From NCBI GenBank assembly GCA_964603235.1, contig CAZRUU010000001.1, forward strand, positions 1-38,588: DNA of 38,588 bases, written 5' to 3'. Position numbers and translations under genes: made by a program. The notes below the pieces were generated by a model. The model was given only the letters and a program-made list of their open reading frames with translations, ran no database searches and had not been told where the DNA came from. Numbering within the stretch: position 1 is the stretch's first letter; every line of letters starts with the position of its first letter. Below are positions 88 through 15,801 of this stretch, in pieces. This DNA comes from an uncultured Syntrophaceae bacterium (GTDB taxonomy: Bacteria; Desulfobacterota; Syntrophia; Syntrophales; UBA2210).

Positions 88-1188
88 CTAGGCCCGTTTC
101 TTCAAGACATGAACATTGCGGGAGACGGTCACATCCACCTTGTCCTTTTCCTTCAAAGGTACATGCTCCCTGGGATCCTGGATGTCCACGATTATTTCCT
201 TGTCATTCCCCAGGACCACGTGACATTTTGCAAGCGCCCCCGAATATATATACCGTCTCAGTGTGCCCTGGATCACGTTCTGTTTAACCGTTCCGTTGGC
301 TGGTGCGATCCTTATTGTTTCCGGTCTGATGACGAGCAACACTTCAGTCCCTGGGGCAAATTCAGTCTGCTCAATATCAATCTCAAGCTTCCCGTATTCA
401 GTTGATACGACAGCTGCATCAGTTTCCTTGATGATGCTGTCGATCTTTGCTGGGAGGAAATTGACGTAACCGACAAAACTCGCGATGAATTCATTGACGG
501 GATGATCGTATATCTCAATGGGAGAACCTACCTGCTGTATATACCCATCTGAGAGTACAACGATCTTGTCGGATATGGCCATTGCCTCATACTGGTCGTG
601 GGTGACAAAGACGGTTGTGATGGACAGTTCCGTCTGAAGCCTCCTGATTTCATCACGCATGAGAACCCGCAGGTTCGCGTCGAGGTTCGATATGGGTTCG
701 TCGAGGAGGAGCACCTTGGGTGAAAAGGCAAGTGCACGGGCAAAGGCGACGCGCTGCTGCTGACCACCGCTCATTTTATCGATCATCCTGTCGTTGTATC
801 CTTCCAGTTGCACCAGCGTCAGGAGTTCATCGACACGTTCCCGGATCTTTTTCTTGTCCCATTTTTTGATCTTCAGTCCGTAGGCAAGATTTTCACCTAC
901 CGTCAGATGAGGAAAGAGGGCATAGTTCTGGAAACAGATCCGTGTATCACGAAGATTGGGCGGCAGATTACTGATATCCCTCCCCTCAAGTATGATCTCG
1001 CCGGAATCCTGTTCAGTGAATCCTCCGATGACACGTAGAAGAGTGGTCTTTCCGCATCCGCTGGGCCCCACGAACGTTACCAGCTCTCCCTTATTTACCT
1101 CAATAGAAATGCCATTCAGGACCTTGTTCTTGCCGAAGGATTTGTGGATATCCTTTACGATCAACATTGGTTGCTCATTCGTACCCAT
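88..1188 (-). CDS. ABC transporter ATP-binding subunit with C-terminal TOBE-like domain (PotA/FbpC/PhnT type)
   Basis: 366-aa ORF. Walker A GPSGCGKTT, signature MSGGQQQRVAFARAL, Walker B VLLLDEP, H-loop VTHDQ. The ATG lies 1 nt after the permease stop. Confidence 0.9.
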   Translation of the reverse strand: MGTNEQPMLIVKDIHKSFGKNKVLNGISIEVNKGELVTFVGPSGCGKTTLLRVIGGFTEQDSGEIILEGRDISNLPPNLRDTRICFQNYALFPHLTVGENLAYGLKIKKWDKKKIRERVDELLTLVQLEGYNDRMIDKMSGGQQQRVAFARALAFSPKVLLLDEPISNLDANLRVLMRDEIRRLQTELSITTVFVTHDQYEAMAISDKIVVLSDGYIQQVGSPIEIYDHPVNEFIASFVGYVNFLPAKIDSIIKETDAAVVSTEYGKLEIDIEQTEFAPGTEVLLVIRPETIRIAPANGTVKQNVIQGTLRRYIYSGALAKCHVVLGNDKEIIVDIQDPREHVPLKEKDKVDVTVSRNVHVLKKRA

Positions 1189-1189
1189 A

Positions 1190-2881
1190 TTATGCAGCGC
1201 CTCTCTTTGGTTCTATATTGAGATTTGTAAATTTTGTTAACAGTTTAAGTGTAATCATGCACAGGATAACTATCATGATCATCTTCAAGGTAGTGGCCGA
1301 CGCAAGGCCTATTTTTCCGTATGCAGCTGCGTCGAATATGGTCACCGCCGCCAGTTCGTAGCCAGGGCTTACAAGGAATACTACCGCGCTGAGGGATACC
1401 ATTGTTGTCATGAAGGTATAGATAAAACCTGCGATAAAGGCAGGGAACATAATGGGAAGGACTATTCTCCTGAATGTTGTGATGAAGGTTGCCCCCATAT
1501 CCCATGATGCCTCCTCTATTTCGATATTGATCTGATGAAGCTTGGTGATTCCCGCTTCGACGCCGACGGCAAGAAAACGAAATACGCAGTTGAGGGCCAG
1601 TATCATGATTCCTCCCGTCAGTTTCATGGGAGGTGACGCGAAGGCTAGGAGATAGCCAACTCCGAGGACGGTGCCCGGCAAGGCAAATCCCGACAGGGCG
1701 ATCATCTCGATGAAATTTCTTCCGAAAAATTTTCCACGCACGATAATATAGGCGAGAAGAGTACCGATGATGCCGCCAATGAGCGCGGCGAGAAACGATA
1801 CTTTTACGCTGTTCCAGATTGCTATGTTGGAGCGGAAATCCATAATATGTCTCCAAACGAATTCATTTTTGACACCCAGAATGTTGACAAACGCGGCCAT
1901 TATGACCACTAAGAAGCAGATAAATATGGTGAATCCGAAGGTAAAGGTAATGGCAATGAAGGGTACTTTTACGAAGGGACTCATCTTTCGCGGTTCTGAG
2001 GCGATGGGCTTGCCTTCGATCGTAGTGAATTTCTTGCCCTTGAGCAGGTAATTATGGGCTATGAAGATCATGATGCATGGCATGATCAACATGACGGAAA
2101 GGACGCTACCCATACTGAAATCAGCTTCACCCGTTATCATTGTGTAGGTGTCGGGGGCCAGAAAGGGAACTCTGCCTCCAAGGACAGCGGCATTACCGAA
2201 CTCCGCGATGGTCATGACAAAAACCAGGAGGGCGGCCTTGAGCAGTCCGGGAGCGAGCAGAGGGAGTGTAATAGTCCTTATGATGTGTCCCTCCGTCGCG
2301 CCCATGTCGTAGGCGCTTTCCTCAAGGTTCGGATTCAGCGATTTGATATTATTTTCCAGTATCAGGAATGCCAGGGGTATGAAAGCGAGTGTCTGGGCTA
2401 TGACAACGCCGTCGAAGCCGTATATCTCCCAGTGAACACCGAAAGTGGTGGTGATCAACCCGACGCGTCCGAAGAGAATAATAAGGGAGAGCGCGAAGAG
2501 ATATGGCGGTGCAATCAACGGTATCATGGCGACGATCTTGAGAGGTTTACGCAGGGCCATGGGGCCGCGCGTCGTCATGTAGGCGAAACAGAAACCTACG
2601 GCCACGCATATAACGGTATTTATCACGCCTAGCCACAGTGTATTCTTCAGAGATTGGAAAAAATACGCATGGGTAAAAAAATTATTGTAGTGTGCGAGGG
2701 TAAAACCCCCAGGGCCTTGAAAGCTCTTTACCAGTACGGCGAATATGGGGTAGAGGAGAAAGACGGCGAGTAGCAGAAATAAAAGCAAAGCCAGGATGTT
2801 GATAAACTTCGCGTTGAAAAATTCTTTGATACTTTCCCATCCTGTCAGCTCAGCGTGGTATGGTGTTGCCGTTAAAGCCAT
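1190..2881 (-). CDS. Fused two-domain ABC transporter permease (Fe3+/2-aminoethylphosphonate-type, single polypeptide carrying both membrane domains)
   Basis: 563-aa highly hydrophobic ORF with two EAA-like loops (ESAYDMGATEGHIIRTITLPLLAPG and EEASWDMGATFITTFRRIVLPIMFPA). It sits between the binding-protein and ATPase genes. Confidence 0.85.
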   Translation of the reverse strand: MALTATPYHAELTGWESIKEFFNAKFINILALLLFLLLAVFLLYPIFAVLVKSFQGPGGFTLAHYNNFFTHAYFFQSLKNTLWLGVINTVICVAVGFCFAYMTTRGPMALRKPLKIVAMIPLIAPPYLFALSLIILFGRVGLITTTFGVHWEIYGFDGVVIAQTLAFIPLAFLILENNIKSLNPNLEESAYDMGATEGHIIRTITLPLLAPGLLKAALLVFVMTIAEFGNAAVLGGRVPFLAPDTYTMITGEADFSMGSVLSVMLIMPCIMIFIAHNYLLKGKKFTTIEGKPIASEPRKMSPFVKVPFIAITFTFGFTIFICFLVVIMAAFVNILGVKNEFVWRHIMDFRSNIAIWNSVKVSFLAALIGGIIGTLLAYIIVRGKFFGRNFIEMIALSGFALPGTVLGVGYLLAFASPPMKLTGGIMILALNCVFRFLAVGVEAGITKLHQINIEIEEASWDMGATFITTFRRIVLPIMFPAFIAGFIYTFMTTMVSLSAVVFLVSPGYELAAVTIFDAAAYGKIGLASATTLKMIMIVILCMITLKLLTKFTNLNIEPKRGAA

Positions 2882-2936
2882 CCTTCTCCCCTTTGTGTGA
2901 TAGTTGCCAGTAAATCTCAGATGTTAAAGACAACGG

Positions 2937-3938
2937 TTATTTGTAGGTGGTCCTGAATTTCGATTTCCAGATATCGTTATTCTTGGGCCTTTCTTTCGCG
3001 GCCTTTCCGAGGTCCAGATCGATGTACTTCGGCTGTATTTCTCCGTAGAGCTTGTTCGGCGCCGGACGGGGAGCCATATAGCCAATGTTAGCCATAACAG
3101 CGCTAAATTCTTGTTCTGCAAGCGCATCAATTACCTTCTTGCAGAGACTTAATTGTTTTCCCTCTGTAGTACTGAAGATAAACGCAAAGGTTCCGTCATA
3201 GCCGATACCCTCTTCTGGGACTCCCCAGACAATCGGATAACCCTGGTCGAGCCTGTTTTTGACGTTTTCATCTGAGGTGATACCCAGCGTGAATTCGCCA
3301 CGACCAACGAGGTCTGTCGGCGCATTGCCGCTTCTGGTGTAATGATGGATGTTTTTGTCAAGTTTCTGAAGGAAATCCCAACCTCCATCATCGCCATAGA
3401 GGGCGAGGAAGGTGAAGCGGATCATGTTTGCCGTTCCGGAGCTGAGGGGTGATGCCATGACGATCTCACCCTTCCACTTGGGATCCAGAAGCTCCTTCCA
3501 GCTGGTGGGAAGCTTGAGGCCTTTTTTAGCGAGGATATCCTTATTACCAACGAGCACAAAAGAGAAATTCCCGATGTTGTACCAGTATCCCTTGGGATCG
3601 GCGAAAACATTGCTGATTCCCTGCCATTTAGGAGACTTGTAAGACTGGGCCCATTTCTTCTCCGCTGCCATAAAGCACAGGGGAGAACCACAGCCAAGAA
3701 CCATATCAGCATTGAAATTGGGGGCTTCGGCCTTTACCTTGGCTTCAATTTCACCGAATGACTGAAAAGTCTGCTTAATGTCAATTCCTGTTTTTGCCTT
3801 GACGTAGTTTACGATAGCTATGTTGTTGTCGGGTGACGTACCCATGTAGGCGGTTATTTCATCACCAGCGTAAACACTGCCGCCTACTACCATGATTGCA
3901 AAAATGACGAGAACTGCCAAAGATATTTTTGTCTTCAT
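2937..3938 (-). CDS. Periplasmic substrate-binding protein of the ABC importer (FbpA/PhnS-like family)
   Basis: 333-aa ORF. Signal peptide MKTKISLAVLVIFAIMVVGGSVYA. Motif WKELLDPKWKGEIVMASPLSSGTA is typical of Fe3+/AEP-type binding proteins (from memory). RBS AAGGAGAAAC precedes the ATG. Confidence 0.8.
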   Translation of the reverse strand: MKTKISLAVLVIFAIMVVGGSVYAGDEITAYMGTSPDNNIAIVNYVKAKTGIDIKQTFQSFGEIEAKVKAEAPNFNADMVLGCGSPLCFMAAEKKWAQSYKSPKWQGISNVFADPKGYWYNIGNFSFVLVGNKDILAKKGLKLPTSWKELLDPKWKGEIVMASPLSSGTANMIRFTFLALYGDDGGWDFLQKLDKNIHHYTRSGNAPTDLVGRGEFTLGITSDENVKNRLDQGYPIVWGVPEEGIGYDGTFAFIFSTTEGKQLSLCKKVIDALAEQEFSAVMANIGYMAPRPAPNKLYGEIQPKYIDLDLGKAAKERPKNNDIWKSKFRTTYK

Positions 3939-3951
3939 AATGTTTCTCCTT

Positions 3952-3999
3952 TTGAGTGATCATTGGTTATACTTGTTGAGTGATCATTGGTTATACTTG
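3952..3999. repeat. Perfect 2 x 24-bp tandem direct repeat (TTGAGTGATCATTGGTTATACTTG) in the 5' leader of the ABC operon
   Basis: Copies at 3952-3975 and 3976-3999 are identical. They lie 14 nt upstream of the binding-protein start codon, next to its RBS. Each unit contains the palindrome TGATCA. Confidence 0.95.
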
Positions 4000-4065
4000 A
4001 AACAAGACACCTTTAACCTTATACCCCACCCCCTTTCATTATCCATTTCATACAATATGCTTTTC

Positions 4066-4087
4066 AAATATAAGTCAAACTAATAAT
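4066..4087 (-). promoter_or_regulatory. Candidate promoter/operator module for the ABC operon (minus strand ATTATTAGTTTGACTTATATTT, contains TTGACT -35-like hexamer)
   Basis: The 22-nt string is identical to 19860-19881 upstream of phnW. The -35-like TTGACT lies at 4073-4078 on the minus strand. The -10 element is not clear. Confidence 0.45.
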
Positions 4088-4238
4088 TATTATATTATAG
4101 ATAACCGATGATTATCGTATCCCCCCAGACGATGAAAGGATAGCTCTGGCCCTCAGGCTAAAACTCGATTTTATTTCGCAGGGATAGCAGAGGTACAGAG
4201 AAGAACAGCAATATTCGCCCTTGTGCCTCTATCCATCC

Positions 4239-5399
4239 CTATAACTCATCGATCACTTCATGTATATAGATCTGACGTTTTTCCAGTTCGGAGAAGACAT
4301 CCTCCGGATCGAAGGCGAATTCGGGCATTACCGCGCCCGTGCCGTGAGCCCTGCCGCGAGCGATCAACTGGACTCCTATGGACATGGGGATACCTACGCA
4401 TCTGGTATAGGCCCTGAGTTTTTCCCATCCCTCAACGGAGCCGTCCGATGAAGGGTGCGTATGGGTCAGGATATGCCGGTACTTCTTTCCCGCTTTCGTT
4501 CCGACAACCTCGACGTGCAGGGCATATCCGTACAGATCGGTGTTCTGCCCCTCGGGAGCCTGTTGGAGATAACTTCCGATGGCGTCCATGATACCGACTT
4601 CGGCGCCGTCCAACCGTATCCTGTCGTTTCTCATAAACCCCCACTCATACAGGGCCTTTACGAGCGCCATGTTCGCAGGGGGCCAAGTGCCGCGAACTTC
4701 TATCAGCTCTACCCCCTTGTCTTTGAGATATTCGTAGGCCGTCCTCGTCTCCGAGTGGGGAATGATCCATTGCGGATGAGTCCCGTACGGTTCCGGCAGT
4801 TCAATCTCCCGCTCCCTCGCGAATGGGGGCACCTGTATAAATTTTCCGTCTTCGAAGACCACCCTGCCCGGCAGGGCTGGATCGTATTCATAGGTCGTCG
4901 TTTCAGTGATAGAGGGAGAAAAGGCGATGGGCCGGAATGCCCCGTGGCTAACACGGACGATTTCAACGGTATCAAGCCTGTCGGCGGCGTATCTGACCAT
5001 CATGTCGGTGGTTCCCGGTGTCATGCCGAATCCCGGAACATGTATCTCCCCATGCTTTTTGAATATGTCATCGTACTTATATTCTTCCCCGAAGCCGTTG
5101 AGGTTGATCCCGCTGCAGCCTGCCCGGGCTATGCATTCCGTGGTGCGGTCATTGAGTTTTATGGTTGTCCCGTCCATAACGATCTCGTACTCTTTAAGGG
5201 TATTTATGGTTTCCTCCTTTTCGAGGACGTTAACCCTTACGAAATCTACCCGACTGTCGTTAAGCTCTTCTACGAGAGCGCGACCGGCCTCTTCATTGTA
5301 ATCACCTATGGTAATTTTTTCGAACTCGGAGAATTCCACCAGATCACGGGCCGCTTCACCGCATATTTTCCCAGCGCCGCCAAGACACAACACGTTCAT
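4239..5399 (-). CDS. Saccharopine dehydrogenase-family NAD(P)-dependent oxidoreductase
   Basis: N-terminal Rossmann motif MNVLCLGGAGKICGEAARDL and about 385 aa, typical of the saccharopine/carboxynorspermidine dehydrogenase family. I prefer the ATG at 5399 (RBS AGGGGGG upstream) to the TTG at 5435 in the ORF track. Confidence 0.75.
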   Translation of the reverse strand: MNVLCLGGAGKICGEAARDLVEFSEFEKITIGDYNEEAGRALVEELNDSRVDFVRVNVLEKEETINTLKEYEIVMDGTTIKLNDRTTECIARAGCSGINLNGFGEEYKYDDIFKKHGEIHVPGFGMTPGTTDMMVRYAADRLDTVEIVRVSHGAFRPIAFSPSITETTTYEYDPALPGRVVFEDGKFIQVPPFAREREIELPEPYGTHPQWIIPHSETRTAYEYLKDKGVELIEVRGTWPPANMALVKALYEWGFMRNDRIRLDGAEVGIMDAIGSYLQQAPEGQNTDLYGYALHVEVVGTKAGKKYRHILTHTHPSSDGSVEGWEKLRAYTRCVGIPMSIGVQLIARGRAHGTGAVMPEFAFDPEDVFSELEKRQIYIHEVIDEL

Positions 5400-5503
5400 A
5401 TTATCCCCCCTTTTTCTCATCAGACATGATTGCAATCCCCGAATGCCAAGGGTTCTTCATCGCTTATGCAGTCTTGATGGATTCGAAGAAAGTTTTTAAA
5501 CGT

Positions 5504-5582
5504 GTCATTTCGAACGAATGTGAGAAATCTTTACAATGTAACATTTTAAAGATACAAGATTTCTCTCTGCGATCGAAATGAC
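5504..5582. repeat. REP/MITE-like imperfect inverted repeat (GTCATTTCGAACGAATGTGAGAAATCT ... AGATTTCTCTCTGCGATCGAAATGAC)
   Basis: Arms at 5504-5530 and 5557-5582 are complementary apart from a few mismatches. It is intergenic, between the class-III PLP gene and the saccharopine-dehydrogenase-like gene. Confidence 0.7.
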
Positions 5583-5704
5583 AAATGATGATAGTTATTC
5601 AAACCTCTCCACTTATGTGATTTTAAGTATCTTCAAATATTATATTGGGTAAGTCAAAGGACTAATTATAGGTATTATGATAACCGCAGGTTATGGTTTG
5701 GGGA

Positions 5705-7069
5705 CTATACTCCTTGTTCCACTTCACCTATTGTTTCATCAAGGATATCCAGCGCCGTATCCATCTCTTCCTTTGTTATGACAAGGGCCGGCCTCAACGT
5801 TATGATGTTTCCCTCTATCGTCTTGAGGGACAGCCCCTTCTCGAGGCATCTGAACATGATGATCTCCGCCTCATCGACGGCCCTCTGCCTGGTTTTTCTG
5901 TCGGTAACGAGGTCGATCCCTATATGAAGGCCCACCCCCTTCACGTCTCCGATGAAGGGGTGCCTCTCTTTCATCTCAGACAGCCGATCCAGTGTATAGG
6001 CTCCCAGTTCCTCAGCGTGCCGGCACAGATCGTTCTTTTCTATATACTCGATTTCCCCGAGAGCGGCCGCGCAACAGAGGGCGTTCTTTTCATGCGTGTA
6101 ATGGCCTATGGACCGGTGCTGCAGTGTGTTGTATTCTTCTTTGGCGATAATTCCCGCGAAGGGGAGCAGGCCGCCCCCCATAGACTTCCCCAGCACGAGG
6201 ATGTCAGGGGTGAGATAATGCTCGCAGGCGAACATCTTCCCTGTCCTACCGAAACCTTCGATTATTTCGTCGAAGATAAGCAAGGCCCCGTATTCATCAC
6301 ACAGGCCTTTCACACCCTCCCAGAATCCCCTGCTCGGCACTACCGGTTTCGCGGAAATCGGCTCACCAATCAGCGCCGCCATCTCCGGCTCTCGCCGTAG
6401 CACCAGTTCGATCTGGCGGAGACACTCGGCGTCCACGTCAGATCTATCGGTGAATCCCCACGGGTTCCGGTAATAGTTGGGAAACTCCACATGAAAAGCC
6501 CCCGGAACCATAGGACCGAGACCCCCGTGAAAATGTTCTTCACCACCGACACTTGCCGCAGCGAATCCAGCTCCGTGAAAAGAATCCCAGAAAGAGATCG
6601 TCTTGAATCTTCCCGTTACCTGTTTCGCGAGCTTCAGTGCCATCTCGATTGCTTCGGACCCCCCCGGGCAGAACAGAGACCTGGAGAGACCCTGGGGAGT
6701 GATCTCCGAGAGCTTCTTTGCCAGAGATACTGCCGGTATGTTGGTATATCTCCGAGGACAGAACGTCATCTCCGAGTCCAGTTGTTTTCTGACAGCGGCG
6801 ATAATATCAGGGTTGTTAAAGCCCGCGTTATGGACACCGTTGCCATGCATATCGATGTAGCTTTTTCCGTCCAGATCTTCTATGCACGCACCGTGGGCCC
6901 TGGCCAGCACATTCAGGACAGGCGTGGAAAGATTCTGATGGAGGAAATACCGGTTATCCTCCTCAAACCACTTCCTGGCTTCTACCGACAGATTCCCTTC
7001 CCAGTATTTTTCCCTGCCGGGCGTGGTGTTGCTGTCTCCCTGTTCTCTGTTAAAACGAGATTCTTTCAT
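5705..7069 (-). CDS. Class-III PLP-dependent aminotransferase/lyase, dialkylglycine-decarboxylase/PbfA-like subgroup (paralog 1)
   Basis: 454 aa. DEIIEGFGRTGKMF and PLP-lysine context DILVLGKSMGGG. Subgroup marks FCPRRYTN, WDSFHG and GHYTHEKN. About half the residues match the 15802-17154 product by eye. Confidence 0.85.
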   Translation of the reverse strand: MKESRFNREQGDSNTTPGREKYWEGNLSVEARKWFEEDNRYFLHQNLSTPVLNVLARAHGACIEDLDGKSYIDMHGNGVHNAGFNNPDIIAAVRKQLDSEMTFCPRRYTNIPAVSLAKKLSEITPQGLSRSLFCPGGSEAIEMALKLAKQVTGRFKTISFWDSFHGAGFAAASVGGEEHFHGGLGPMVPGAFHVEFPNYYRNPWGFTDRSDVDAECLRQIELVLRREPEMAALIGEPISAKPVVPSRGFWEGVKGLCDEYGALLIFDEIIEGFGRTGKMFACEHYLTPDILVLGKSMGGGLLPFAGIIAKEEYNTLQHRSIGHYTHEKNALCCAAALGEIEYIEKNDLCRHAEELGAYTLDRLSEMKERHPFIGDVKGVGLHIGIDLVTDRKTRQRAVDEAEIIMFRCLEKGLSLKTIEGNIITLRPALVITKEEMDTALDILDETIGEVEQGV

Positions 7070-7285
7070 GGTGAGCTTCCCTCCTGCATATAATCATTAA
7101 AGGAAAAATGCATTTCTCCTTGTTTTCGATGATAACACCGGGTACATAAACAAAATTGGAAAAATCAAGGGGTATTTTTCCGTTTATATCTTTTTAATAT
7201 AAGAACAGATGGAATGTACTCTATGCCATGATAGCAACATCATATCAAATATTCCACTTATTAACACTGTTACGCCGTTGATATA

Positions 7286-7615: not shown

Positions 7616-7825
7616 AAGGCAATACCTCCCCGGCCAAAAGTTACGTTAGATTTCACGAGTTCGTTTAAGGTTATGGGATCGAGTTGTTATCAACATTGAA
7701 AGCTCAATTGTGATAGCGCATACCCTGACGAACTTGATCCATAAGCCGTAGCAAAAGGGATGTCCCCTTAATTTCTCCTTATTTTCCATGATAATTCGAT
7801 TTAAATTAGCAAAGGGGAAGAATCA

Positions 7826-7948
7826 GGAGAAATCTTATTTCAAGATATTGCAGCTCAATTCGATGAAGCATGGAATGATCGAGATGCGGCTAAAATTGCA
7901 GCCCTCCTCACTAAAGATGCTGACTTTGCTTTCCCTGATGGAGTAATA
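7826..7948 (+). pseudogene. N-terminal relic of a SnoaL-like/DUF4440 (NTF2-fold) protein, truncated at a REP-like element
   Basis: Translation ILFQDIAAQFDEAWNDRDAAKIAALLTKDADFAFPDGV matches the usual start of SnoaL-like proteins (xxFxxAWNxxDxxxxxxLxxxDAxF). There is no start codon, and the frame runs into the repeat at 7949. Confidence 0.4.
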
Positions 7949-8085
7949 TTTTACGCTTTCGTAAAAAGTCAGAATATGAACAATTTTGTCATTCCCATGA
8001 AAACGGGAATCTAGTATTTCTAGATAGTCATACGCTTCTGGATTCCCGCCTACGCAGGAATGACAGACTTTTTACAAAGCCATCA
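7949..8085. repeat. Composite REP-like element with inverted ends (TTTTACGCTTTCGTAAAAAGTC ... GACTTTTTACAAAGCCATCA) and internal GGGAAT/ATTCCC hairpins
   Basis: It contains GTCATTCCCATGAAAACGGGAATC and GGATTCCCGCCTACGCAGGAATGAC. These are the hairpin modules that translate as VIPxKxGI and LDSRLRxND in many environmental genomes. Confidence 0.65.
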
Positions 8086-8256
8086 TATGTTGAGCGCTAT
8101 CTGGTTTATATGGTCCGTGGGTCTCCTTGAAATCATTAAGAAACTACATGAGCTAAAGATTCTTCCTACAATATTTCATATATATTGATCTGTCCATCAA
8201 GCCCCTTGCAGCCGGCAGCTACCCGTTGTGGCCGCAAATATTCAAGAACAAATGTT

Positions 8257-8448
8257 TCAAACCTTTTCTTCCATTTCTGTCAGGCACGTATCAATAATAT
8301 CGAGCGCCCTGTCCATCTCTTCCTTTGTAATGATCAGGGGCGGGGTGAGGGTAATGATATTTCCCATAGTCAACTTGAAGCTCAGTCCCTTCGTCAGTGC
8401 CCTGTACATCACCTCTTCCGCCTCTTCACAAGCCCTTCTCCTATTACT
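8257..8448 (-). pseudogene. 3'-terminal relic of a third class-III PLP enzyme gene (paralog of 15802-17154)
   Basis: The minus strand translates as ...RRACEEAEEVMYRALTKGLSFKLTMGNIITLTPPLIITKEEMDRALDIIDTCLTEMEEKV*. By hand count, 46 of 51 aligned residues and 121 of 153 nt match the C-terminus encoded at 17002-17154. About 390 N-terminal codons are missing. Confidence 0.75.
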
Positions 8449-8483
8449 GCTGTGATTATGTTTATTGTCTTGTTTTTACACGA

Positions 8484-9356
8484 TTAGAATATGGCCCTTT
8501 TAATGGCCTCAGATGATTTTTCAATCGATGCCAATGCTTTATTATAATATTTTACTGCGTAACCAGCGTATAAAATATCAATTATAAGCATTTGAGACAT
8601 CCTCGATATTGGTCCTTCCTGAAAAAAAGGTGACTGTACAGTGGGTGTAAAAAACTTTATGTCAGCGTACCTGGTGATTGGGGATTTTCTATAGCCCGTA
8701 ATACAGATTGTTGTTGCGCCAGACTTTTTTGCAAATTTCATAGAATTAACGACGGATTTTGTTCTGCCCGAGTTGGCAATTCCTATGGCTACATTATTCT
8801 TGCCTAACAACGATGAAGATACAGCTTGTTGTGCCGGATCACTGTATAATATACATTTTTTGCCAACCCTGTAGAATCTGGATATTGCGTTTTGTCCGGC
8901 AACAATGGATGCGCCGCCGCAATAGACAGCTATAAAATTGGCCTTTTCGATAGCCGAAACACCTTTTTTGATTTCCGAAGGATTAATTATCTTTTTTGTT
9001 TCTCTCAGGATTTCAATATTCCGAAATGTTACTTTGTTGATTATATCTTCAACGGGATCCGTTTTTGTTATGCCATCATAAACAGACTTTTCCCCCAGGT
9101 TAATTGTCTCAATACCGTTGGACGATATTCCGGCAAGGGCAATTTTAAACTCTTGAAAACTGTTGAAATCTATTTCTTTTACAAATCGTGTAATTGTAGA
9201 TTCGGAGACCTTGCACTTTGCAGCGAGTTTCCTGATTTGTAACAGTTTTACCACATCCGGATTGTTTAGTGTGTATATCGCAACTCTTTTTAGAGCCGGA
9301 TTAAGATAAGATGACCGGCTTCTGATATTCGTCAGTATATTATGTTCACCATCCAT
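8484..9356 (-). CDS. RpiR/MurR-family transcriptional regulator (HTH_6 + SIS domain)
   Basis: 290 aa. N-terminal HTH IRKLAAKCKVSESTITRFVKEIDFNSFQEFK, then a SIS-like sugar-phosphate binding region (IAVYCGGASIVAGQNAISRF...GIANSGRTKS). It is divergent from the TAXI-TRAP operon. Confidence 0.85.
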   Translation of the reverse strand: MDGEHNILTNIRSRSSYLNPALKRVAIYTLNNPDVVKLLQIRKLAAKCKVSESTITRFVKEIDFNSFQEFKIALAGISSNGIETINLGEKSVYDGITKTDPVEDIINKVTFRNIEILRETKKIINPSEIKKGVSAIEKANFIAVYCGGASIVAGQNAISRFYRVGKKCILYSDPAQQAVSSSLLGKNNVAIGIANSGRTKSVVNSMKFAKKSGATTICITGYRKSPITRYADIKFFTPTVQSPFFQEGPISRMSQMLIIDILYAGYAVKYYNKALASIEKSSEAIKRAIF

Positions 9357-9462
9357 TACACCACCCCAACCTGCATTAAGATATCTTTAAATCCTCCACC
9401 CGTAACCGTTCAAAACCAACACTCACCGTAAGGCTTTAATGTTTTCTTCATATTTTTATCAA

Positions 9463-9491
9463 AGTATATATTTAAATCATGTATAAGTCAT
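9463..9491 (-). promoter_or_regulatory. Candidate sigma70 promoter of the RpiR gene (-35 ATGACT, 17-nt spacer, -10 TATACT)
   Basis: Read on the minus strand: ATGACT tatacatgatttaaata TATACT. It shares the TGACTTATA core with the modules at 4066 and 19860. Confidence 0.4.
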
Positions 9492-9523
9492 CTTTTAAAA
9501 TAAAATTCTTTTCAATAAAGAAC

Positions 9524-9553
9524 TTGACAAAATAAAATATTATTTTCTATACT
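9524..9553 (+). promoter_or_regulatory. Candidate sigma70 promoter of the TAXI-TRAP/M20 operon (-35 TTGACA, 18-nt spacer, -10 TATACT)
   Basis: TTGACA at 9524-9529 and TATACT at 9548-9553. This implies a leader of about 190 nt before the ATG at 9756. Confidence 0.5.
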
Positions 9554-9755
9554 GAGTTACGTTAAATTATAATTGTTGATATGTTCTTTTTTTCATTGTC
9601 ATGTTGTTTTTACCATTGAAGGAGATGTGGTGTTGATGAGTGTTTATTTTTTGTGGAGATTTTATAAATATGAATAAAAACAAGGAGGAGGTGACGGGGG
9701 AACAAAGAAGATAAGTATTAACCGCAGGTTTACATTAATTTAAGGAGGTAAGATC

Positions 9756-10727
9756 ATGAGGGATCTAAGATTTAAGGTGAAGTTGTTGTGCATAGCTTTA
9801 AGTTTAATTTTTGGGATTGCACTGGTCGGAATGACTCTCCAAGAGGCGGATGCAGCAAAGTTTATCAGGATAAAAGGCTCATCCCTCGGAGGTTCATGGT
9901 ATGCTGGAGGGGCAGCTTGGGCAAAGCTTATTTCTGACAACACAGATTATATTGCCATAAACGTTGCGGCTCCGGGATTGGACAATGAAAGTCTAAAACG
10001 CATGGCCCGGAAAGAATGCGAACTTGTTTTTCTGACGGGTCCCGGAGCATATAACGCCTACAAAGGAGTACCACCAACATGGAAAAACCCTCAGGACATA
10101 CGGGGTCTTTTCGGTTTGTGGCCGGGTGTTATGAATACAGTTGTCATGGCGGACTCCAAGTACAAGACATTGCAGGATCTGAAAGGAGAAAGTATCGCGA
10201 CCTATGTTCCCGGAGATGTGAATGGCGACCAGGTACTTGCATGCCTCAAGCACCATGGCATCACGGAAGAGAACACAAAGTTTTATAGAATCATGAAGGC
10301 CGATGCTTCAAGAATGTTTATTGACGGAAGAGTTGACGCTATAATGTTCTACTTTGGATACGGCCATGCCAATCTGAAGGAAATGTCCGCTTCCCGTAAA
10401 ATAAGATTCCTATCTCCTGATCCTGAATTGGTAAAAGGTTTCATTAAGGAAAATCCTTTTTACTACCTTGGAGATTTCGGAGAAGAATTTGGTGTGCCAA
10501 ACGCCAAACAGCTCGTCGGGCCTTATCTTACTGCCTGCAGAGCCGATGCGCCAATTGATTTTGCATATATGGTAACGAAAGTATGGTTTGAAAATCTCGA
10601 TTGGCTTCAGAAGGTTCTACCGTCAAATATTCCACATATGAATACAAAAGATCCGAGTGCTGGTGTGCCAATCCCACTTCATCCTGGCGCCATAAAATAT
10701 TTCAAGGAAGTTGGGTTAATGAAATAA
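9756..10727 (+). CDS. TRAP transporter solute receptor, TAXI family
   Basis: 323 aa. Signal peptide, then LGGSWYAGGAAWAKLISDNT...INVAAPGLDNESLKRMARKECELVF, which fits the TAXI pattern. Strong RBS AAGGAGG. The TAXI-associated fused permease follows. Confidence 0.85.
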   Translation: MRDLRFKVKLLCIALSLIFGIALVGMTLQEADAAKFIRIKGSSLGGSWYAGGAAWAKLISDNTDYIAINVAAPGLDNESLKRMARKECELVFLTGPGAYNAYKGVPPTWKNPQDIRGLFGLWPGVMNTVVMADSKYKTLQDLKGESIATYVPGDVNGDQVLACLKHHGITEENTKFYRIMKADASRMFIDGRVDAIMFYFGYGHANLKEMSASRKIRFLSPDPELVKGFIKENPFYYLGDFGEEFGVPNAKQLVGPYLTACRADAPIDFAYMVTKVWFENLDWLQKVLPSNIPHMNTKDPSAGVPIPLHPGAIKYFKEVGLMK

Positions 10728-10855
10728 TGGACGCTATATTGAAAAATCCTGATGTTCCGTGTAGAGAATAAGTATTAGAATCTCAGGATCTTTCAGCTTT
10801 GAAGTAAAACCAGTTGCAATAGTGATGCTAATGGGGAAGGTGGCCACGTGAAAAT

Positions 10856-12829
10856 ATGTTGAATTCTAATGCACGGAATCTCAAAAAGGATACGGATGCT
10901 GAATCAGTTCGAGTATGCGGTGTGGATATTTACAATGACGATGACATTAAAGGCATGCCGAAATTTAAAGGTGTTACAAAGGTAGTAACTTTCTGCATCG
11001 GGATACTTGTTAGTTGCTTGTCTATTTACGAAGCGGTATTCGGCAACTTTCAACCAGCTCTTCAAAGACCGTTGCACTTGTTTTTAATGTGTGCGCTGAC
11101 TCTTATCCTGTATCCCTCCGGTTCCTTCAAATACGGTAGCCTTAAAGAGGGGTTTTTAAACATCATTTTAATCCTTTTTCTCCTTTGGTCCTGTATGTGG
11201 GCATTTCTCAACTGGACTCCTCTCTACATCGACCCTTACCCTACGGCTCTTGGCATCGCAATAGGAATACTCTGCATTGCGCTGACATTAGAAGCTACAC
11301 GTAGGGCAGTCGGTCTTCCGATGGTGCTCATAGCTTTGGTAATGCTCGCCTATTGTTTTACAGGGCCATACATGCCTCGTTTTTTATCGCATCCGGGTTT
11401 TTCGCTTAGTAACGTTGTGGTTCATACAGTTGTTGGAACTGAAGGTATGATGGGATTACTGTTAAGCATCAGCGTCAACCAGATTATCTTTTTCATGATG
11501 TTTGCGGCTTTTCTGATAGTCTCTAATTCAACTGATCTTTTTATGAATTTGGCAAAAGCAATTGCCGGGGGTTATTCTGGTGGACCTGCCAAGGTAGCTG
11601 TCGTGGCCAGTGGCTTTATGGGAATGATATCGGGAAGCGCAAGTGGAAATACGGCTACAACTGGATCAGTTACGATTCCTCTCATGATTTCTATGGGGTT
11701 CAAGCGCCATATAGCGGCAGCAATCGAGGCAGTTTCTTCTACGGCAGGTCAGTTCATGCCTCCTATCATGGGGGCATCGGCATTTGTTATCGCCGAATAT
11801 ACGGGCGTAAGTTACTGGGGAGTATGTGTGGCGGCATTTGTTCCATCCGTTATGTATTTCATTGCGATGTTTCTAGTTGTCGATATTGAGGCTAGGATGG
11901 GAGGATTAATGGGATTACCTAAATCAGCACTTCCGCCGGTCTGGTATTCCCTTAAAAAAACGCTTCCTCTGCTTTTTCCCCTGGTTGTACTGGTTGTACT
12001 TTTGTCTATGCGATACAGTCCCCAATGGGCAATAATAAATTCTCTTGGCGTTCTCATTCTCACATGTATCCCCATTACAACGCAAAGGATGAATTTCAGG
12101 AAGATCGCAAGGGCTCTCTCCCTTACCTCAAAAATACTTATTCCCATTGCTACTTCTTGTGCCACATGTGGCTTAATAGTAGGGGTGATGTCATTGACCG
12201 GATTAGGCAATCGTTTGTCGTATGGAATTATTACGATAGCACATGGAAACCTTTTGGTGGGGTTGCTATTTACTATGTGTATGTCCATCATTATAGGTAT
12301 GGGTTTGCCTACACTTGGAGCATATGTTGTTTTAGCTACTCTTGGCGCTCCGGCACTGGCCCAATTGGGCGCTCCTATTATGGGAGCTCATCTGTTTATT
12401 TTCTATTTTGCCGCTATCTCAGCAATAACTCCTCCTGTTTGCCTTGCTGCATTTGTGGGTGCCGGAATTGCAGGCGCACCGCCTATGAAGGTTGGCTTTC
12501 ATGCCGTTCGTATTGGCATGATCAAATACATCATTCCTTACATGTTTGTATTTAGACCGGGATTGATGCTTGACGCATCATTGGGAACCATCGTTCTTAA
12601 TATTTTTGAACTGTTACTGATTGTGTTTCCCGTTTCTATGCTGGCGCAAAGATTCTGGCTTCAAAAGATCAGTTGGGTCGAGACCCTTCTTCTGATAGGG
12701 GCGATATTAATGGTATTTCCGCTATCGTTAAAAACTCTTCCGATTGCCGTGATCCTGGAACTAATTGCAGTAAGCAATCACATTATTCGTCATAGAAAAC
12801 TGACGAAAAAACAGTTTCAAATTTCTTGA
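10856..12829 (+). CDS. TRAP transporter fused permease (DctQ-like + DctM-like, TAXI-associated)
   Basis: 657-aa polytopic membrane ORF directly downstream of the TAXI receptor. Size and organisation fit the 4TM/12TM fusion permeases. Confidence 0.85.
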   Translation: MLNSNARNLKKDTDAESVRVCGVDIYNDDDIKGMPKFKGVTKVVTFCIGILVSCLSIYEAVFGNFQPALQRPLHLFLMCALTLILYPSGSFKYGSLKEGFLNIILILFLLWSCMWAFLNWTPLYIDPYPTALGIAIGILCIALTLEATRRAVGLPMVLIALVMLAYCFTGPYMPRFLSHPGFSLSNVVVHTVVGTEGMMGLLLSISVNQIIFFMMFAAFLIVSNSTDLFMNLAKAIAGGYSGGPAKVAVVASGFMGMISGSASGNTATTGSVTIPLMISMGFKRHIAAAIEAVSSTAGQFMPPIMGASAFVIAEYTGVSYWGVCVAAFVPSVMYFIAMFLVVDIEARMGGLMGLPKSALPPVWYSLKKTLPLLFPLVVLVVLLSMRYSPQWAIINSLGVLILTCIPITTQRMNFRKIARALSLTSKILIPIATSCATCGLIVGVMSLTGLGNRLSYGIITIAHGNLLVGLLFTMCMSIIIGMGLPTLGAYVVLATLGAPALAQLGAPIMGAHLFIFYFAAISAITPPVCLAAFVGAGIAGAPPMKVGFHAVRIGMIKYIIPYMFVFRPGLMLDASLGTIVLNIFELLLIVFPVSMLAQRFWLQKISWVETLLLIGAILMVFPLSLKTLPIAVILELIAVSNHIIRHRKLTKKQFQIS

Positions 12830-12847
12830 AAAGCAAAGGAGAAAAAA

Positions 12848-13240
12848 ATGAAAAGAAAAAGTTTTTTAATGGTTTTGGTGATAATATTTATGTGTCTTTC
12901 CTTCTTTTCTTCATCGGTTATAGCTGCGGTGATGACATACGATGTTACAAACAAGGCAGAGCTTAAAAAGATATCGATGCATATGAAGAAAATAAGGAAA
13001 AAGTCAGATCAAATGGCTGTTGTCTTTGAGCTTACAATCAAGAATGTAGATTCGAAGGCAAATCTTTACTCTGTAACAGTTTTTATTCCGGGGGCTGGTG
13101 GCGCTCAGAGTTTTGTCCCCTATAAAGGAGACAAAAAGATTGCTCCACAGACCGAGGGGACAGCCTCTATAGGAATAATCTATCCTAAATTTCCTGAAGA
13201 TGGATATAGCATAAAGATAGAAGCTGTTGAGTCGCGATGA
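12848..13240 (+). CDS. Small exported protein of unknown function, co-transcribed with the TAXI-TRAP genes
   Basis: 130 aa. RBS AAAGGAGA. N-terminal signal peptide MKRKSFLMVLVIIFMCLSFFSSSVIAA. No family recognised. Confidence 0.5.
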   Translation: MKRKSFLMVLVIIFMCLSFFSSSVIAAVMTYDVTNKAELKKISMHMKKIRKKSDQMAVVFELTIKNVDSKANLYSVTVFIPGAGGAQSFVPYKGDKKIAPQTEGTASIGIIYPKFPEDGYSIKIEAVESR

Positions 13241-13268
13241 CGAGTTAAGTCTGGAAGAGATGGAACCG

Positions 13269-13305
13269 GTATCCGGGGACTGTAACTTTTATGGTCCCCG
13301 GATAC
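13269..13305 (+). terminator. Perfect 12-bp stem-loop (GTATCCGGGGAC n13 GTCCCCGGATAC) between the small exported protein gene and the M20 gene
   Basis: The arms at 13269-13280 and 13294-13305 are exact reverse complements. No clear U-tract follows, so this may be an attenuator or mRNA-stability element rather than a full terminator. Confidence 0.45.
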
Positions 13306-13352
13306 ATTTGGTATAAATAATTCTGTTAAACAATACGGAAAGAATTTTAATC

Positions 13353-14702: not shown

Positions 14703-15092
14703 AAGTATAGATTTATTTTTTCCAGAAGATGTAGTATTTTTAGGCCTATATTTGCATCCTGTCAGTTTTTATTAAAAATCATCTATTGATGATTGGATGA
14801 CATTCTACCGAGAAGATATATACATATTCCAGCAATCAGACTGGCTAAAAAGTTTGCAGATATATCTACGGGGAATGTGTGAAGAAGGAATGGCCCTAAG
14901 ACATGCCAAGCTAATTACGGAAAATCCTAAGATCTTATCGTACTTGGGATTCGTTCTATGGTGTGGGTTTTAGAGCATCGAGAGAAGAACATTGGAGTGA
15001 CGGAGTCTTGGGAGTTAATCCCGGCACCGTACTCGTCATCGGGGAACGAAAACCCGGAAATCAAACCTTAGCGTCAATATGGTCAAAGGCAA

Positions 15093-15134
15093 GACAACCT
15101 CCTTGTAGGTTGCCTTGCCTTTGAGTACGAACTA
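15093..15134. repeat. 15-bp-stem hairpin built from an alanine-dehydrogenase 3'-end-like sequence
   Basis: AAGGCAAGACAACCT cc ttgt AGGTTGCCTTGCCTT. The right arm and loop (CCTTGTAGGTTGCCTTGCCTTT) match 17363-17385 inside ald at 22 of 23 nt. The minus strand encodes KGKATYKEV, against KGKVTYKGV in Ald. Confidence 0.5.
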
Positions 15135-15269
15135 ACCCGCTGGTGCCCTTTTTTGATCACGACTGAGAGGTCTGCTAGGTAGCCTCAGCGGTCAAATACG
15201 ATACAACCACCAAACCTCTTTTTTGTCCCTCGGGACAGGGACCAGCTTTTATTCCGGCCTCGCCTTTTT

Positions 15270-15407
15270 CTACCCCCTTTTTTTTTTCATAAATGCGACA
15301 GGACGATAGCCCTTATGATTCAATTTGCCTGAAACAACAATTATATGGTTCGGACAGAAGGATACACGGAGATAACAGCCCTTGCAAAGTTTCCTGTCAA
15401 ATATCAT
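15270..15407 (-). pseudogene. Relic of a 4Fe-4S ferredoxin-type gene (2-oxoacid:ferredoxin oxidoreductase delta-like)
   Basis: The minus strand translates MIFDRKLCKGCYLRVSFCPNHIIVVSGKLNHKGYRPVAFMKKKRG*. CKGCYLRVSFCP is a CxxCxxCxxxCP cluster motif with the third Cys replaced by Arg. The frame ends just after an A10 tract (T10 at 15278-15287 on the plus strand). Confidence 0.3.
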
Positions 15408-15728
15408 CTTATTATAATATTTTGTTCTTCCGGTTTTGAATCCTCCATATCCTGTAGCCTGGTCCAGTGTTTCTCCTCACATTAAATTCCAGTTATTGCC
15501 TCTGTCCTGATTCGGATACTTTTTTGATGCCGCAAGAAGTGTTCCTCCCTTTATCCATAAAGTAATATACGGTTCAATTTACATTTTGATAGTGCCGAAA
15601 ATACAAGCCAAAGTAATAATATTTTATATGATAAAAACCGATTTGTTGGCTGCTCTCGGTCAACACGGACCTCGCCATTACCTGCAGAACAATAGCTTTA
15701 TATTATCAATTACATAAGAAATATTATA

Positions 15729-15757: not shown

Positions 15758-15801
15758 TTTGATTTTAATCTCTGGGAAACTGGAAAAACAAGGAGGAGTT
15801 C

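Follow-up and report, generated by a model that had tools for sequence, protein, structure and literature searches.

The five genes at one end of the window, the 38,588-nucleotide stretch of DNA analysed here, are best read as the arm of a large anaerobic island for phosphonate catabolism that takes up substrates and funnels them onward. Among them is a saccharopine-dehydrogenase-like (SDH-like) protein, for which we put forward, as an evenly balanced proposition, a role as an NAD+-dependent aminophosphonate dehydrogenase that would convert 2-aminoethylphosphonate (AEP) or N-alkyl-AEP directly to phosphonoacetaldehyde (PAA), parallel to the lyase PbfA. In the proposed scheme, a binding protein, a fused permease and an ATPase would import an aminophosphonate related to AEP, and two parallel enzymes, PbfA1 and the SDH-like protein, would yield PAA for use by a downstream module. 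PbfA1 would eliminate ammonia from (R)-1-hydroxy-AEP, while the SDH-like protein would abstract hydride at C2 of AEP or, as the more useful activity, of N-methyl- or N-alkyl-AEP, with hydrolysis of the imine giving PAA plus ammonia or amine. Such an enzyme, with the substrate, direction and cofactor predicted here, would do the work of the flavoenzymes PbfC and PbfD independently of oxygen and without being homologous to them.

All five open reading frames are present and lie on one strand, as the first-pass annotation had them. Because that strand is the minus strand, the enzymes are transcribed ahead of the transporter, reversing the transporter-first order given there: the PbfA-type lyase PbfA1 (5705..7069; Aminotran_3 over its full length) is followed by the SDH-like protein (386 aa, 4239..5399; Sacchrp_dh_NADP and Sacchrp_dh_C), a periplasmic solute-binding protein with a signal peptide (2937..3938; SBP_bac_6, PF13343), a fused two-domain ABC permease (1190..2881; two BPD_transp_1 stretches) and an ABC ATPase with a C-terminal TOBE domain (88..1188; ABC_tran and TOBE_2). 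Family matches are well above chance (Aminotran_3, 1.8e-83; PbfA, 1.1e-194; PhnT2, 3e-115). The SDH-family frame was called as 5435..4239 on the minus strand; translation almost certainly begins at the ATG at 5399, judged from the resulting 386 aa, as in all homologues, and from a GGGGGG Shine-Dalgarno sequence 6–7 nt upstream. In this lineage the five genes are not the single tight operon suggested earlier: the binding-protein, permease and ATPase genes are closely spaced (55-nt and 1-nt gaps), but the PbfA1–SDH (~300 nt) and SDH–binding protein (300 nt) gaps are wide, and each contains one copy of a common upstream motif. In other Syntrophales the PbfA1–SDH gap is only ~27–51 nt, and the ancestral unit is therefore PbfA1–SDH–binding protein–permease–ATPase.

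Before the SDH-like gene (5651..5694, minus strand), the motif consists of the dyad ATAACC-TGC-GGTTAT, a LysR-type box of the form T-N11-A, followed by TTAGTCCTTTGACTTA. A second copy (repeat family D1) together with a sigma-70-like promoter (TTGAAA-18-GATAAT) precedes the binding-protein gene (4038..4118, minus strand), the leader of which also carries a perfect 24-bp tandem duplication (3952..3999; family D14, two copies, 100% identical). Four copies were aligned, with four pattern matches observed against 0.59 expected by chance; the dyad-plus-TTGACT motif precedes the SDH, binding-protein, PhnW and citryl-CoA-lyase-like genes, and is kept ahead of the SDH-like gene in loci L006–L009. A common, putative LysR-type operator probably places these genes under joint control with PhnW and the downstream genes.

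The PLP enzyme passes the NCBI curated PbfA model NF049939 (647 bits, cut-off 525), bearing out its earlier designation as PbfA-type. A second PbfA copy at 15802–17154 scores 702 bits and is 52% identical to PbfA1, and in 11 loci the gene immediately 5' of SDH is a PbfA1 orthologue (73–91% identity). For the importer, PhnS2, PhnT2 and PhnU2 are the best family matches, although all three parts score under the curated cut-offs: the binding protein (PF13343, 82 bits) reaches 152 bits against 393 for PhnS2 (TIGR03261), the permease 303 against 593 for PhnU2 (TIGR03262) and the ATPase 385 against 458 for PhnT2 (TIGR03265). In line with the suspected kinship to the second-type putative AEP transporter, PhnS2/PhnT2/PhnU2, the layout is the same, one PF13343 binding protein, one fused permease and one ATPase, located among AEP-catabolic genes. 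A ferric transporter was rejected: a comparison of pocket motifs found no Tyr-Tyr pair in the binding protein, and the solved structures closest to it, AfuA (4r72) and P5PA (6wce), are of proteins that bind organophosphates, not iron. The binding protein is nevertheless a divergent relative, only 24–26% identical to true PhnS2 proteins; the closest known systems also include the binding proteins AepX, AepS and PhnS (PMC8316502). The window's protein has GITSDENV where true PhnS2 have GISF(G/A)Y, suggesting that its ligand may be different.

By Pfam and an AlphaFold2 model (pLDDT 95.8), the SDH-like protein has the saccharopine-reductase/carboxyspermidine-dehydrogenase fold, matching CASDH, LysDH, saccharopine reductase and homospermidine synthase (Foldseek TM 0.82–0.85 to CASDH and 0.75–0.82 to LysDH). 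The best structural matches, CASDH/CANSDH (B. fragilis 8DEB, H. pylori 8H4Z/8H52), have the same domain plan; yet identity is only 14–19% to CASDH and 12–19% to solved relatives, while the family itself is tight (61–93%). Fold relatives cleave secondary amines; to our knowledge, all characterised enzymes of this fold interconvert an R-CH2-N bond and an aldehyde, by oxidation or reduction, and we know of none that oxidises an alcohol. Residues were mapped onto B. fragilis CASDH (PMC10413350) by sequence alignment, the pocket being placed from that alignment alone. The His-Glu-Ser/Thr proton relay of CASDH is kept and invariant (His228 as H215, Glu230 as E217, Ser144 as T131), whereas the acidic residues reported to position aspartate semialdehyde (PMC10413350) are lost, Glu229 being replaced by Ser216 and Glu188 being absent; Asp140 of the GFDPG loop is likewise replaced, by Thr127. 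R156, R179, H315 and R375 are conserved in both clades, and R195 and H313 are specific to the SDH-like clade; this Arg/His count may exceed the needs of one phosphonate and could hint at a larger, doubly anionic substrate, a point against the dehydrogenase reading. In contrast to the NADP-type site of CASDH, with Ser34-Arg35, the SDH-like protein has Asp33-Tyr34, an NAD-type signature by which NAD is the predicted cofactor. CASDH, the nearest structural relative, runs in the reductive direction (PMC10413350), and PAA is produced by both PbfA and PhnW; the SDH-like enzyme might reduce the imine that it forms from PAA and ammonia or an amine, buffering the reactive aldehyde or making an N-(2-phosphonoethyl) product. 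We consider this very improbable, given the catabolic contexts (importers, PhnX, regulators), the Asp33 signature, which favours NAD+, typical of catabolic oxidation, and the finding of no relative next to the PEP mutase gene in 17 Clostridia genomes.

The genomic context of the SDH-like gene is largely one of phosphonates, and not the polyamine context of CASDH. Across 50 loci spanning Thermodesulfobacteriota, Spirochaetia and Clostridia, ~37 place it beside PhnS2T2U2-type importers (22–23 loci), PbfA (17), PhnW (13) or PhnX (12), in agreement with the earlier proposal that the dehydrogenase is tied to phosphonate catabolism and not to polyamines. LysR/DeoR/RpiR regulators also accompany it, and eutABC adjoins it in one locus. 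The other ~13 loci, mostly short contigs or stand-alone DeoR-SDH-kinase units, show none of the phosphonate genes in the flanking sequence retrieved; this, the fold in common with CASDH and LysDH, and the JGI label "lysine 6-dehydrogenase" on some members would suit a polyamine (CASDH/CANSDH), lysine (LysDH/saccharopine) or amino-acceptor-recycling dehydrogenase adjacent to phosphonate genes by chance. Such an origin is extremely unlikely: carboxy(nor)spermidine dehydrogenase identity was rejected at 23 bits against the NF043000 cut-off of 800, solved relatives are distant in sequence, none of the 50 loci contains polyamine or lysine genes, a genuine alanine dehydrogenase already adjoins PhnW in the window, and adjacency to phosphonate genes recurs in three phyla.

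Members 61–69% identical to the window's protein sit in PhnW-SDH-PhnX operons, and many operons pair the gene with PhnW-PhnX only. In L047 and L048 the order is RpiR-PhnS2-T2-U2-PhnW-SDH-PhnX, with PhnS2 (455 bits) and PhnX (350 bits) both over cut-off. Five genomes with importer+SDH units have no PbfA above cut-off; in four of these, PhnW-PhnX pairs occur elsewhere with their own PhnS2T2U2-like importer, and the importer+SDH unit therefore looks like a separate feeder line. Nothing in the 70%-complete source genome passes the PhnX cut-off, yet that genome retains the SDH-like gene; the SDH-like protein is thus not downstream of PAA cleavage.

The first-pass annotation had arranged the enzymes in series, the dehydrogenase freeing a primary amine for the PLP enzyme to convert. 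Its PbfA-type PLP enzyme, AEP-type importer and non-polyamine dehydrogenase stand, but the order does not agree with PhnW-SDH-PhnX operons and PbfA-less genomes. In a series of this kind, the SDH-like enzyme would oxidise the substituent side of an imported N-substituted AEP or hydroxy-AEP (HAEP), and PhnW or PbfA would turn the freed AEP or HAEP into PAA. Secondary-amine cleavage among fold relatives, importer+SDH units in genomes with PhnW-PhnX elsewhere, and a gene almost always near PhnW or PbfA (the short PbfA1–SDH gaps of Syntrophales; PhnW-SDH overlaps in L003 and L047) are in its favour. We still regard it as unlikely, since N-methyl forms are the only natural N-substituted AEP known to us, and the kept relay and lost acidic ligands suit PAA as the aldehyde better than an unknown second one (PMC10413350). 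In a Desulfovibrio locus (L043), moreover, PhnX-like, MFS and SDH genes follow one another on a contig that lacks both PhnW and PbfA. More probably, the SDH-like protein would make PAA itself, parallel to PbfA, because it occurs without PbfA and with PhnW-PhnX, and characterised members of the fold oxidise R-CH2-NH to an aldehyde.

PbfF, an NAD-dependent HAEP racemase (fold PF02826), was found from just such pbfA adjacency (PMC12366243). PbfA adjoins the SDH-like gene in 17 loci, among them the minimal Spirochaetia unit PbfA-LysR-SDH, and this, with the predicted use of NAD, invites a similar role, in which C1 of hydroxy-AEP would be oxidised and re-reduced, by a racemase or 1-hydroxy dehydrogenase, giving PbfA its R-enantiomer. 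However, PbfF is of an unrelated fold and always occurs with PbfA (PMC12366243). The SDH-like gene is often found apart from PbfA, in the five PbfA-less genomes and many PhnW-PhnX operons. With no alcohol-oxidising enzyme of the fold known to us either, this role is very improbable.

Hydrolytic AEP/HAEP clusters combine PhnW, PhnX and PbfA with ancillary "phosphonate breakdown factors" (Zangelmi et al. 2021, PMC8154272). The island resembles them in its PbfA-type lyase passing the curated model, its PhnW, its dedicated importer and several feeder enzymes converging on PAA; it differs in its anaerobic host, two PbfA paralogues, no PhnX above cut-off, and an extra enzyme of a fold not described in papers on such clusters. 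Our literature search found no published link between the SDH fold and phosphonates. PbfC and PbfD are FAD-dependent N-methyl-AEP/AEP oxidoreductases; PbfD uses O2, and the natural acceptor of PbfC is unknown (PMC10590968). The SDH-like protein would do the same job, turning AEP-type amines into PAA where PhnW is either unable to act on them or not needed, and shows the same cluster patterns (with PhnW and PhnX, with PhnX alone, together with PbfA). Unlike these PF01266 flavoproteins, it has an NAD(P) Rossmann SDH fold and is not homologous. While PbfD requires O2, NAD+ is the predicted acceptor of the SDH-like protein, and its family was seen only in anaerobes, all 48 genome loci coming, judged by record title, from lineages known as anaerobic. 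Several points weigh against the dehydrogenase reading: with AEP as substrate the enzyme would duplicate PhnW, although the two genes are in some loci (L003, L047) coupled in translation; guts and anoxic sediments are not known to be rich in N-methyl-AEP; and NAD+-dependent oxidative deamination is thermodynamically uphill, needing a pull from PAA consumption.

Taken together, the cluster of this anaerobe appears to serve the uptake and breakdown of natural carbon-phosphorus compounds. If the proposed activity is true, an unstudied, recurrent dehydrogenase family would supply an oxygen-free step, so far undescribed, in phosphonate catabolism.

The five open reading frames predicted in this part of the window are all present, and all lie on the minus strand, encoding in order a PLP enzyme (PbfA1, 7069..5705), a protein of the saccharopine-dehydrogenase (SDH) family (5435..4239), a solute-binding protein (3938..2937), a fused permease (2881..1190) and an ATPase (1188..88). 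The first-pass annotation had put the transporter ahead of the enzymes; the order is in fact reversed, with transcription reaching the two enzymes first and the transporter after them. The window is a single 38.6-kb contig of a 1.5-Mb metagenome-assembled genome (MAG) that is 70% complete, and its closest relatives are Syntrophaceae/Syntrophales. The true start of the dehydrogenase is almost certainly the ATG at 5399, because this start yields a 386-residue protein, as in all homologs, and has a G-rich ribosome-binding site ahead of it. The binding-protein, permease and ATPase genes are tightly spaced, and the PbfA–SDH and SDH–binding protein gaps are about 300 nt each in the window's lineage; the PbfA1–SDH gap is just 27–51 nt in other Syntrophales. 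A perfect 24-bp tandem duplication (3952-3999) stops 14 nt short of the binding-protein start codon.

In line with its earlier description as PbfA-like, PbfA1 passes the NCBI curated equivalog model for PbfA, the (R)-1-hydroxy-2-aminoethylphosphonate (HAEP) ammonia-lyase, scoring 647 bits (cut-off 525) over profile positions 2-441 of 442, which places it in the PbfA family at the sequence level; no PbfA structure was found in the PDB. A second copy, PbfA2 (15802-17154), scores 702 bits on the same model and is 52% identical to PbfA1; the two paralogs could differ in substrate or stereochemistry. PbfA1 sits in a cluster with genes producing or consuming phosphonoacetaldehyde (PAA), including PhnW (576 bits) in the window, and its orthologs adjoin PhnW, importers and genes resembling aldehyde dehydrogenases or citryl-CoA lyases at seven of the fetched loci (L016-L019, L030, L041 and L044). 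In relatives, PbfA1 and PbfA2 are divergent neighbors about 260 bp apart, with the PbfA1 type directly upstream of the dehydrogenase. In the window the paralogs are parted by a block of lower GC content (7616-15801; 0.38–0.44 versus about 0.48–0.50) containing RpiR, a TAXI-TRAP transporter, a 130-residue ORF and an M20 deacylase, and its junction is marked by a PbfA 3′ stump (8275-8451) and a repeated leader segment (7112-7154 and 7771-7813). Farther along, on the minus strand at 26726-27820, lies a gene for a threonine-dehydrogenase-like zinc alcohol dehydrogenase, which scores 308 bits on TIGR03366 ("phosphonate catabolism associated alcohol dehydrogenase"; cut-off 328) and is similar to the 2-hydroxyethylphosphonate dehydrogenases of the recently described PbfG class (PMC13576164).

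The importer had been likened to the second-type putative transporter of 2-aminoethylphosphonate (AEP). Its make-up (a single binding protein, a single fused double permease and a single ATPase), its AEP-catabolic context and its best NCBIfam matches (PhnS2, PhnU2 and PhnT2) all agree with this assignment, yet the three parts fall below the curated cut-offs (152 of 393 bits for TIGR03261, 303 of 593 for TIGR03262 and 385 of 458 for TIGR03265). True PhnS2 proteins, scoring 412–464 bits, are found beside the same dehydrogenase at other loci; the window's binding protein shares only 24–26% identity with them, and the Syntrophales type reads GITSDENV where true PhnS2 reads GISF(G/A)Y. It carries a signal peptide and the Pfam domain SBP_bac_6, a family that includes the known AEP binders AepX, AepS and PhnS (PMC8316502). 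Its nearest solved relatives are AfuA, which binds sugar phosphates, and P5PA, which binds pyridoxal phosphate, neither of them a ferric binder. Iron is held in Haemophilus influenzae FbpA by His9, Glu57, Tyr195 and Tyr196, and the first-pass annotation had taken such Tyr/Tyr/His/Glu ligands as the mark of a ferric importer; inspection of the whole 333-residue binding protein found no YY dipeptide. With no ferric family among its NCBIfam matches and with solved relatives that bind organophosphates, we reject an FbpABC-type Fe3+ importer on sequence grounds. Compared with AfuA, in which Thr150 of the SSGT loop binds phosphate and His205, Asp206 and Glu229 coordinate the sugar (PMC4546632), the binding protein keeps the SSGT anion loop, whereas its alignment shows the sugar motif changed to Glu, Asn and Asp, respectively, unlike an AfuA-type protein. 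These solved relatives, the retained SSGT loop, the ligand swaps and the divergence from PhnS2 argue for a protein from the AEP-importer lineage that binds organophosph(on)ates in an altered, more acidic predicted pocket and may take a ligand other than plain AEP.

The dehydrogenase belongs to a compact family. Both saccharopine-dehydrogenase Pfam domains, PF03435 for the Rossmann NAD(P) domain and PF16653 for the C-terminal catalytic domain, match weakly though above gathering thresholds (40 and 46 bits), and the sole NCBIfam match is to carboxynorspermidine synthase, NF043000, which requires 800 bits and gives only 23. Identity to the dehydrogenase is 67–95% across the 120 best database clusters; in a search of 1.8 billion representatives, a single full-length cluster stood at 58% and the next at no more than 39%. 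The next clade is archaeal, at 35–40% identity. Members longer than usual (P0054, P0063 and P0066), considered as possible Rosetta-stone fusions, proved to be mis-called starts only. All 48 species-level genome loci come from lineages that, judged by their record titles, we take to be anaerobic, among them Syntrophales, Desulfobacteraceae, Desulfovibrio, Salidesulfovibrio, Spirochaetia, Anaerovoracaceae, Hominibacterium, Zhenpiania, Blautia and Lachnospiraceae.

An AlphaFold2 model built from 55 sequences has a pLDDT of 95.8 and a pTM of 0.93. By Foldseek it is closest to carboxyspermidine dehydrogenases (TM-scores 0.82–0.85), followed by Pyrococcus lysine 6-dehydrogenase (0.75–0.82), saccharopine reductases (0.73–0.79) and then homospermidine synthase, at 12–19% identity throughout; scores to 3abi, 1e5l, 2axq and 8deb span 0.73–0.85, and profile search agrees with this placement. 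To our knowledge, all these fold relatives interconvert R-CH2-NH-R′ and R-CHO + H2N-R′ with NAD(P). The two Pfam domains and the fold assign the dehydrogenase to the saccharopine reductase/L-lysine 6-dehydrogenase superfamily, an assignment that holds at superfamily level only. In B. fragilis CASDH, His228 is the proposed general base, with Glu230 as partner and Ser144, whereas Glu229 and Glu188 are said to position aspartate semialdehyde (PMC10413350). By profile alignment, the former three correspond to H215, E217 and T131 of the dehydrogenase, invariant or nearly so in both the phosphonate clade and the archaeal clade, whereas Ser216 takes the place of Glu229 and the segment carrying Glu188 is missing from the dehydrogenase; the CASDH motif YHEE accordingly reads PHSE, and Asp140 of the GFDPG loop becomes Thr127. 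R156, R179, H315 and R375 are conserved in both clades, R195 and H313 only in the phosphonate clade. With pocket placement taken from the alignment, this pattern reads as retention of the imine redox machinery, loss of cation-binding residues and gain of anion-binding ones. Ser34/Arg35 of CASDH, in the region of the NADP 2′-phosphate, are replaced by Asp33/Tyr34, the usual NAD signature, which predicts an NAD-type cofactor site.

We compared gene context at 50 loci, using tblastn with the window's proteins and clustering of all ORFs; most of the genomes are incomplete MAGs, and absences are provisional. Recurrent neighbors of the dehydrogenase are the fused permease (23 loci), the binding protein and the ATPase (22 each), PbfA-type enzymes (17), PhnW (13) and PhnX (12), together with the regulators DeoR (12), LysR (11) and RpiR. 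In Syntrophales a PbfA2 gene diverges from PbfA1-SDH-SBP-permease-ATPase, with PhnW farther on; two Clostridia carry RpiR-PhnS2-T2-U2-PhnW-SDH-PhnX, with PhnS2 and PhnX over their cut-offs; two further loci (L003 and L020) read importer-PhnX-PbfA-PhnW-SDH; one Desulfovibrio has a PhnX-like gene, an MFS gene and SDH; complete spirochaete chromosomes hold a PbfA-LysR-SDH unit; and Blautia-type genomes have RpiR-importer-SDH alone. Every one of these contexts combines an organophosphonate importer, or a regulator, with enzymes making or using PAA. The fetched flank contains one or more phosphonate markers at about 37 of the 50 loci, the other 13 or so being short contigs or stand-alone DeoR-SDH-kinase units beside housekeeping genes. 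No polyamine genes were recognized around the dehydrogenase at any of the 50 loci; this context, the NF043000 score and the changed active-site residues lead us to reject a polyamine enzyme (CASDH or CANSDH) or a lysine enzyme, and the carboxynorspermidine grouping that the first-pass annotation had kept in view finds no footing.

In a Desulfobacteraceae MAG (L022:6270-14023), the genes immediately downstream of a 69%-identical dehydrogenase are eutA-eutB-eutC and one for an acylating aldehyde dehydrogenase, and no phosphonate gene is in view, a single case; ethanolamine is the hydroxy analog of AEP. A class-III enzyme resembling glutamate-1-semialdehyde aminomutase/GntE adjoins the SDH-like gene at a Syntrophaceae phosphonate locus (L001:3596-4870), and such a neighbor recurs in the archaeal sister clade (Bathyarchaeia, L066:8251-9621) as a second recurrent PLP partner; the archaeal contexts gave no phosphonate link and no other usable hint. 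Two Blautia/Lachnospiraceae genomes (L067:313-7164 and L068:2085-8475) have two PhnS2T2U2-like importers, the true PhnS2 system with the dehydrogenase and a divergent importer with PhnW-PhnX, joined in one of them by a class-II aldolase-like gene. Profile search of 17 Clostridia genomes carrying PEP mutase found no dehydrogenase relative near the mutase gene.

A shared upstream motif, consisting of a T-N11-A dyad (which reads ATAACC-TGC-GGTTAT in the dehydrogenase copy) plus a TTAGT..TTGACTTA box, precedes four genes, namely the dehydrogenase gene, the binding-protein gene, PhnW and the first citryl-CoA-lyase-like gene; the dyad-plus-TTGACT copies before the latter two lie at 19862-19912 and 25716-25766. 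The strict pattern gave three matches against 0.01 expected by chance. Exact −35/−10 elements before the SDH-like gene, sought by hand, were not assigned, and the claim concerns the shared motif only. The motif is kept in the closest relatives, which have a LysR gene just past the ATPase, where the window's contig ends; a LysR regulator gene adjoins the operon at L007, L009 and L017. The copies before PhnW and the citryl-CoA-lyase-like gene suggest that the whole island forms one regulon, and co-regulation of the importer/dehydrogenase arm with the PAA-consuming module is thus likely.

PAA (OHC-CH2-PO3) resembles aspartate semialdehyde minus its amino group, and because of this likeness we propose that the "aldehyde-side" substrate bound by the dehydrogenase would be the 2-phosphonoethyl moiety. 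AEP or N-alkyl-AEP would be oxidized with NAD+ to the imine, whose hydrolysis would give PAA and ammonia or an amine; we consider this reading about evenly poised between right and wrong. PbfC and PbfD are flavoenzymes filling the same niche in aerobes, PbfD requiring O2 and PbfC using an acceptor that is unknown (PMC10590968), and they occur in the same cluster patterns, with PhnW and PhnX, with PhnX alone or with PbfA (PMC10590968; Table 1 of PMC12366243). Both have the FAD-dependent PF01266 fold, which the dehydrogenase does not match, so that the likeness is one of proposed function and cluster pattern only; an NAD-linked analog confined to anaerobes would make a coherent counterpart.

The first-pass annotation had instead proposed a sequence in which the dehydrogenase releases a primary amine for the PLP enzyme. 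Five genomes, however, carry the dehydrogenase gene with no PbfA above cut-off, which argues against a fixed order and for a dehydrogenase independent of PbfA, and we regard the sequential variant, with AEP or HAEP released, as unlikely; in four of the five, an adjacent PhnW-PhnX pair with its own PhnS2T2U2-like importer lies on another contig. The remaining rivals, even pooled, appear improbable to a similar degree. The same five genomes make a PbfF-like HAEP racemase unlikely: PbfF belongs to PF02826 and is invariably co-present with pbfA (PMC12366243), whereas the dehydrogenase differs in fold and occurs without PbfA. Recycling of the amino acceptor is also unlikely, since a true alanine dehydrogenase already accompanies PhnW in the window and the gene also occurs in PbfA-LysR-SDH units with no neighboring PhnW. 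A role after C–P cleavage, such as acetaldehyde handling, is rejected. The window's genome (70% complete) keeps the gene with no PhnX above cut-off, and neither of two complete spirochaete chromosomes (L011 and L042) has a PhnX at E≤1e-30, the one PhnW-like gene elsewhere being sub-threshold, which argues that the dehydrogenase does not act on PhnX products. The importer and dehydrogenase might instead serve an undescribed natural phosphonate, an opine-like N-(2-phosphonoethyl) secondary amine or an N-substituted HAEP, which the dehydrogenase would cleave in the manner of saccharopine reductase acting on saccharopine, a proposal we consider quite improbable. Such a larger, doubly charged substrate would explain the acidic SDEN pocket motif, the extra Syntrophales PbfA paralog and the conserved Arg/His residues.

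As a whole the cluster is of a known kind; what sets it apart is its dehydrogenase, together with a divergent binding protein and a second PbfA paralog. None of the described ancillary enzymes, PbfA, PbfB/C/D, PbfF and PbfG (PMC8154272, PMC10590968, PMC12366243, PMC13576164), has a saccharopine-dehydrogenase fold, and in our literature search no paper linked "saccharopine dehydrogenase" to PbfA, nor in any meaningful way to aminoethylphosphonate. The known routes feeding N-methylated AEP into hydrolytic phosphonate pathways are flavoenzymes, one O2-dependent and the other with an acceptor unknown, and N-methyl-AEP, as the authors of that study point out, is not a compound that the anaerobe-compatible PhnWYA route can handle (PMC10590968). 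The dehydrogenase is a small, soluble-looking protein with orthologs of about 68–69% identity in cultured strains such as Salidesulfovibrio brasiliensis JCM 12178, Anaerovorax odorimutans, Hominibacterium faecale and Zhenpiania hominis, and PhnX-coupled assays are already published. The labels "lysine 6-dehydrogenase" and "saccharopine dehydrogenase" on some 1,700 database proteins are misleading, and the result would correct them. Gut Clostridia, spirochaetes, sulfate reducers and syntrophs all have this conserved NAD-type dehydrogenase in their AEP clusters, and, should the proposed oxidation of AEP or N-alkyl-AEP hold, it would provide an entry step that needs no oxygen and bring a new fold into the "phosphonate breakdown factors".
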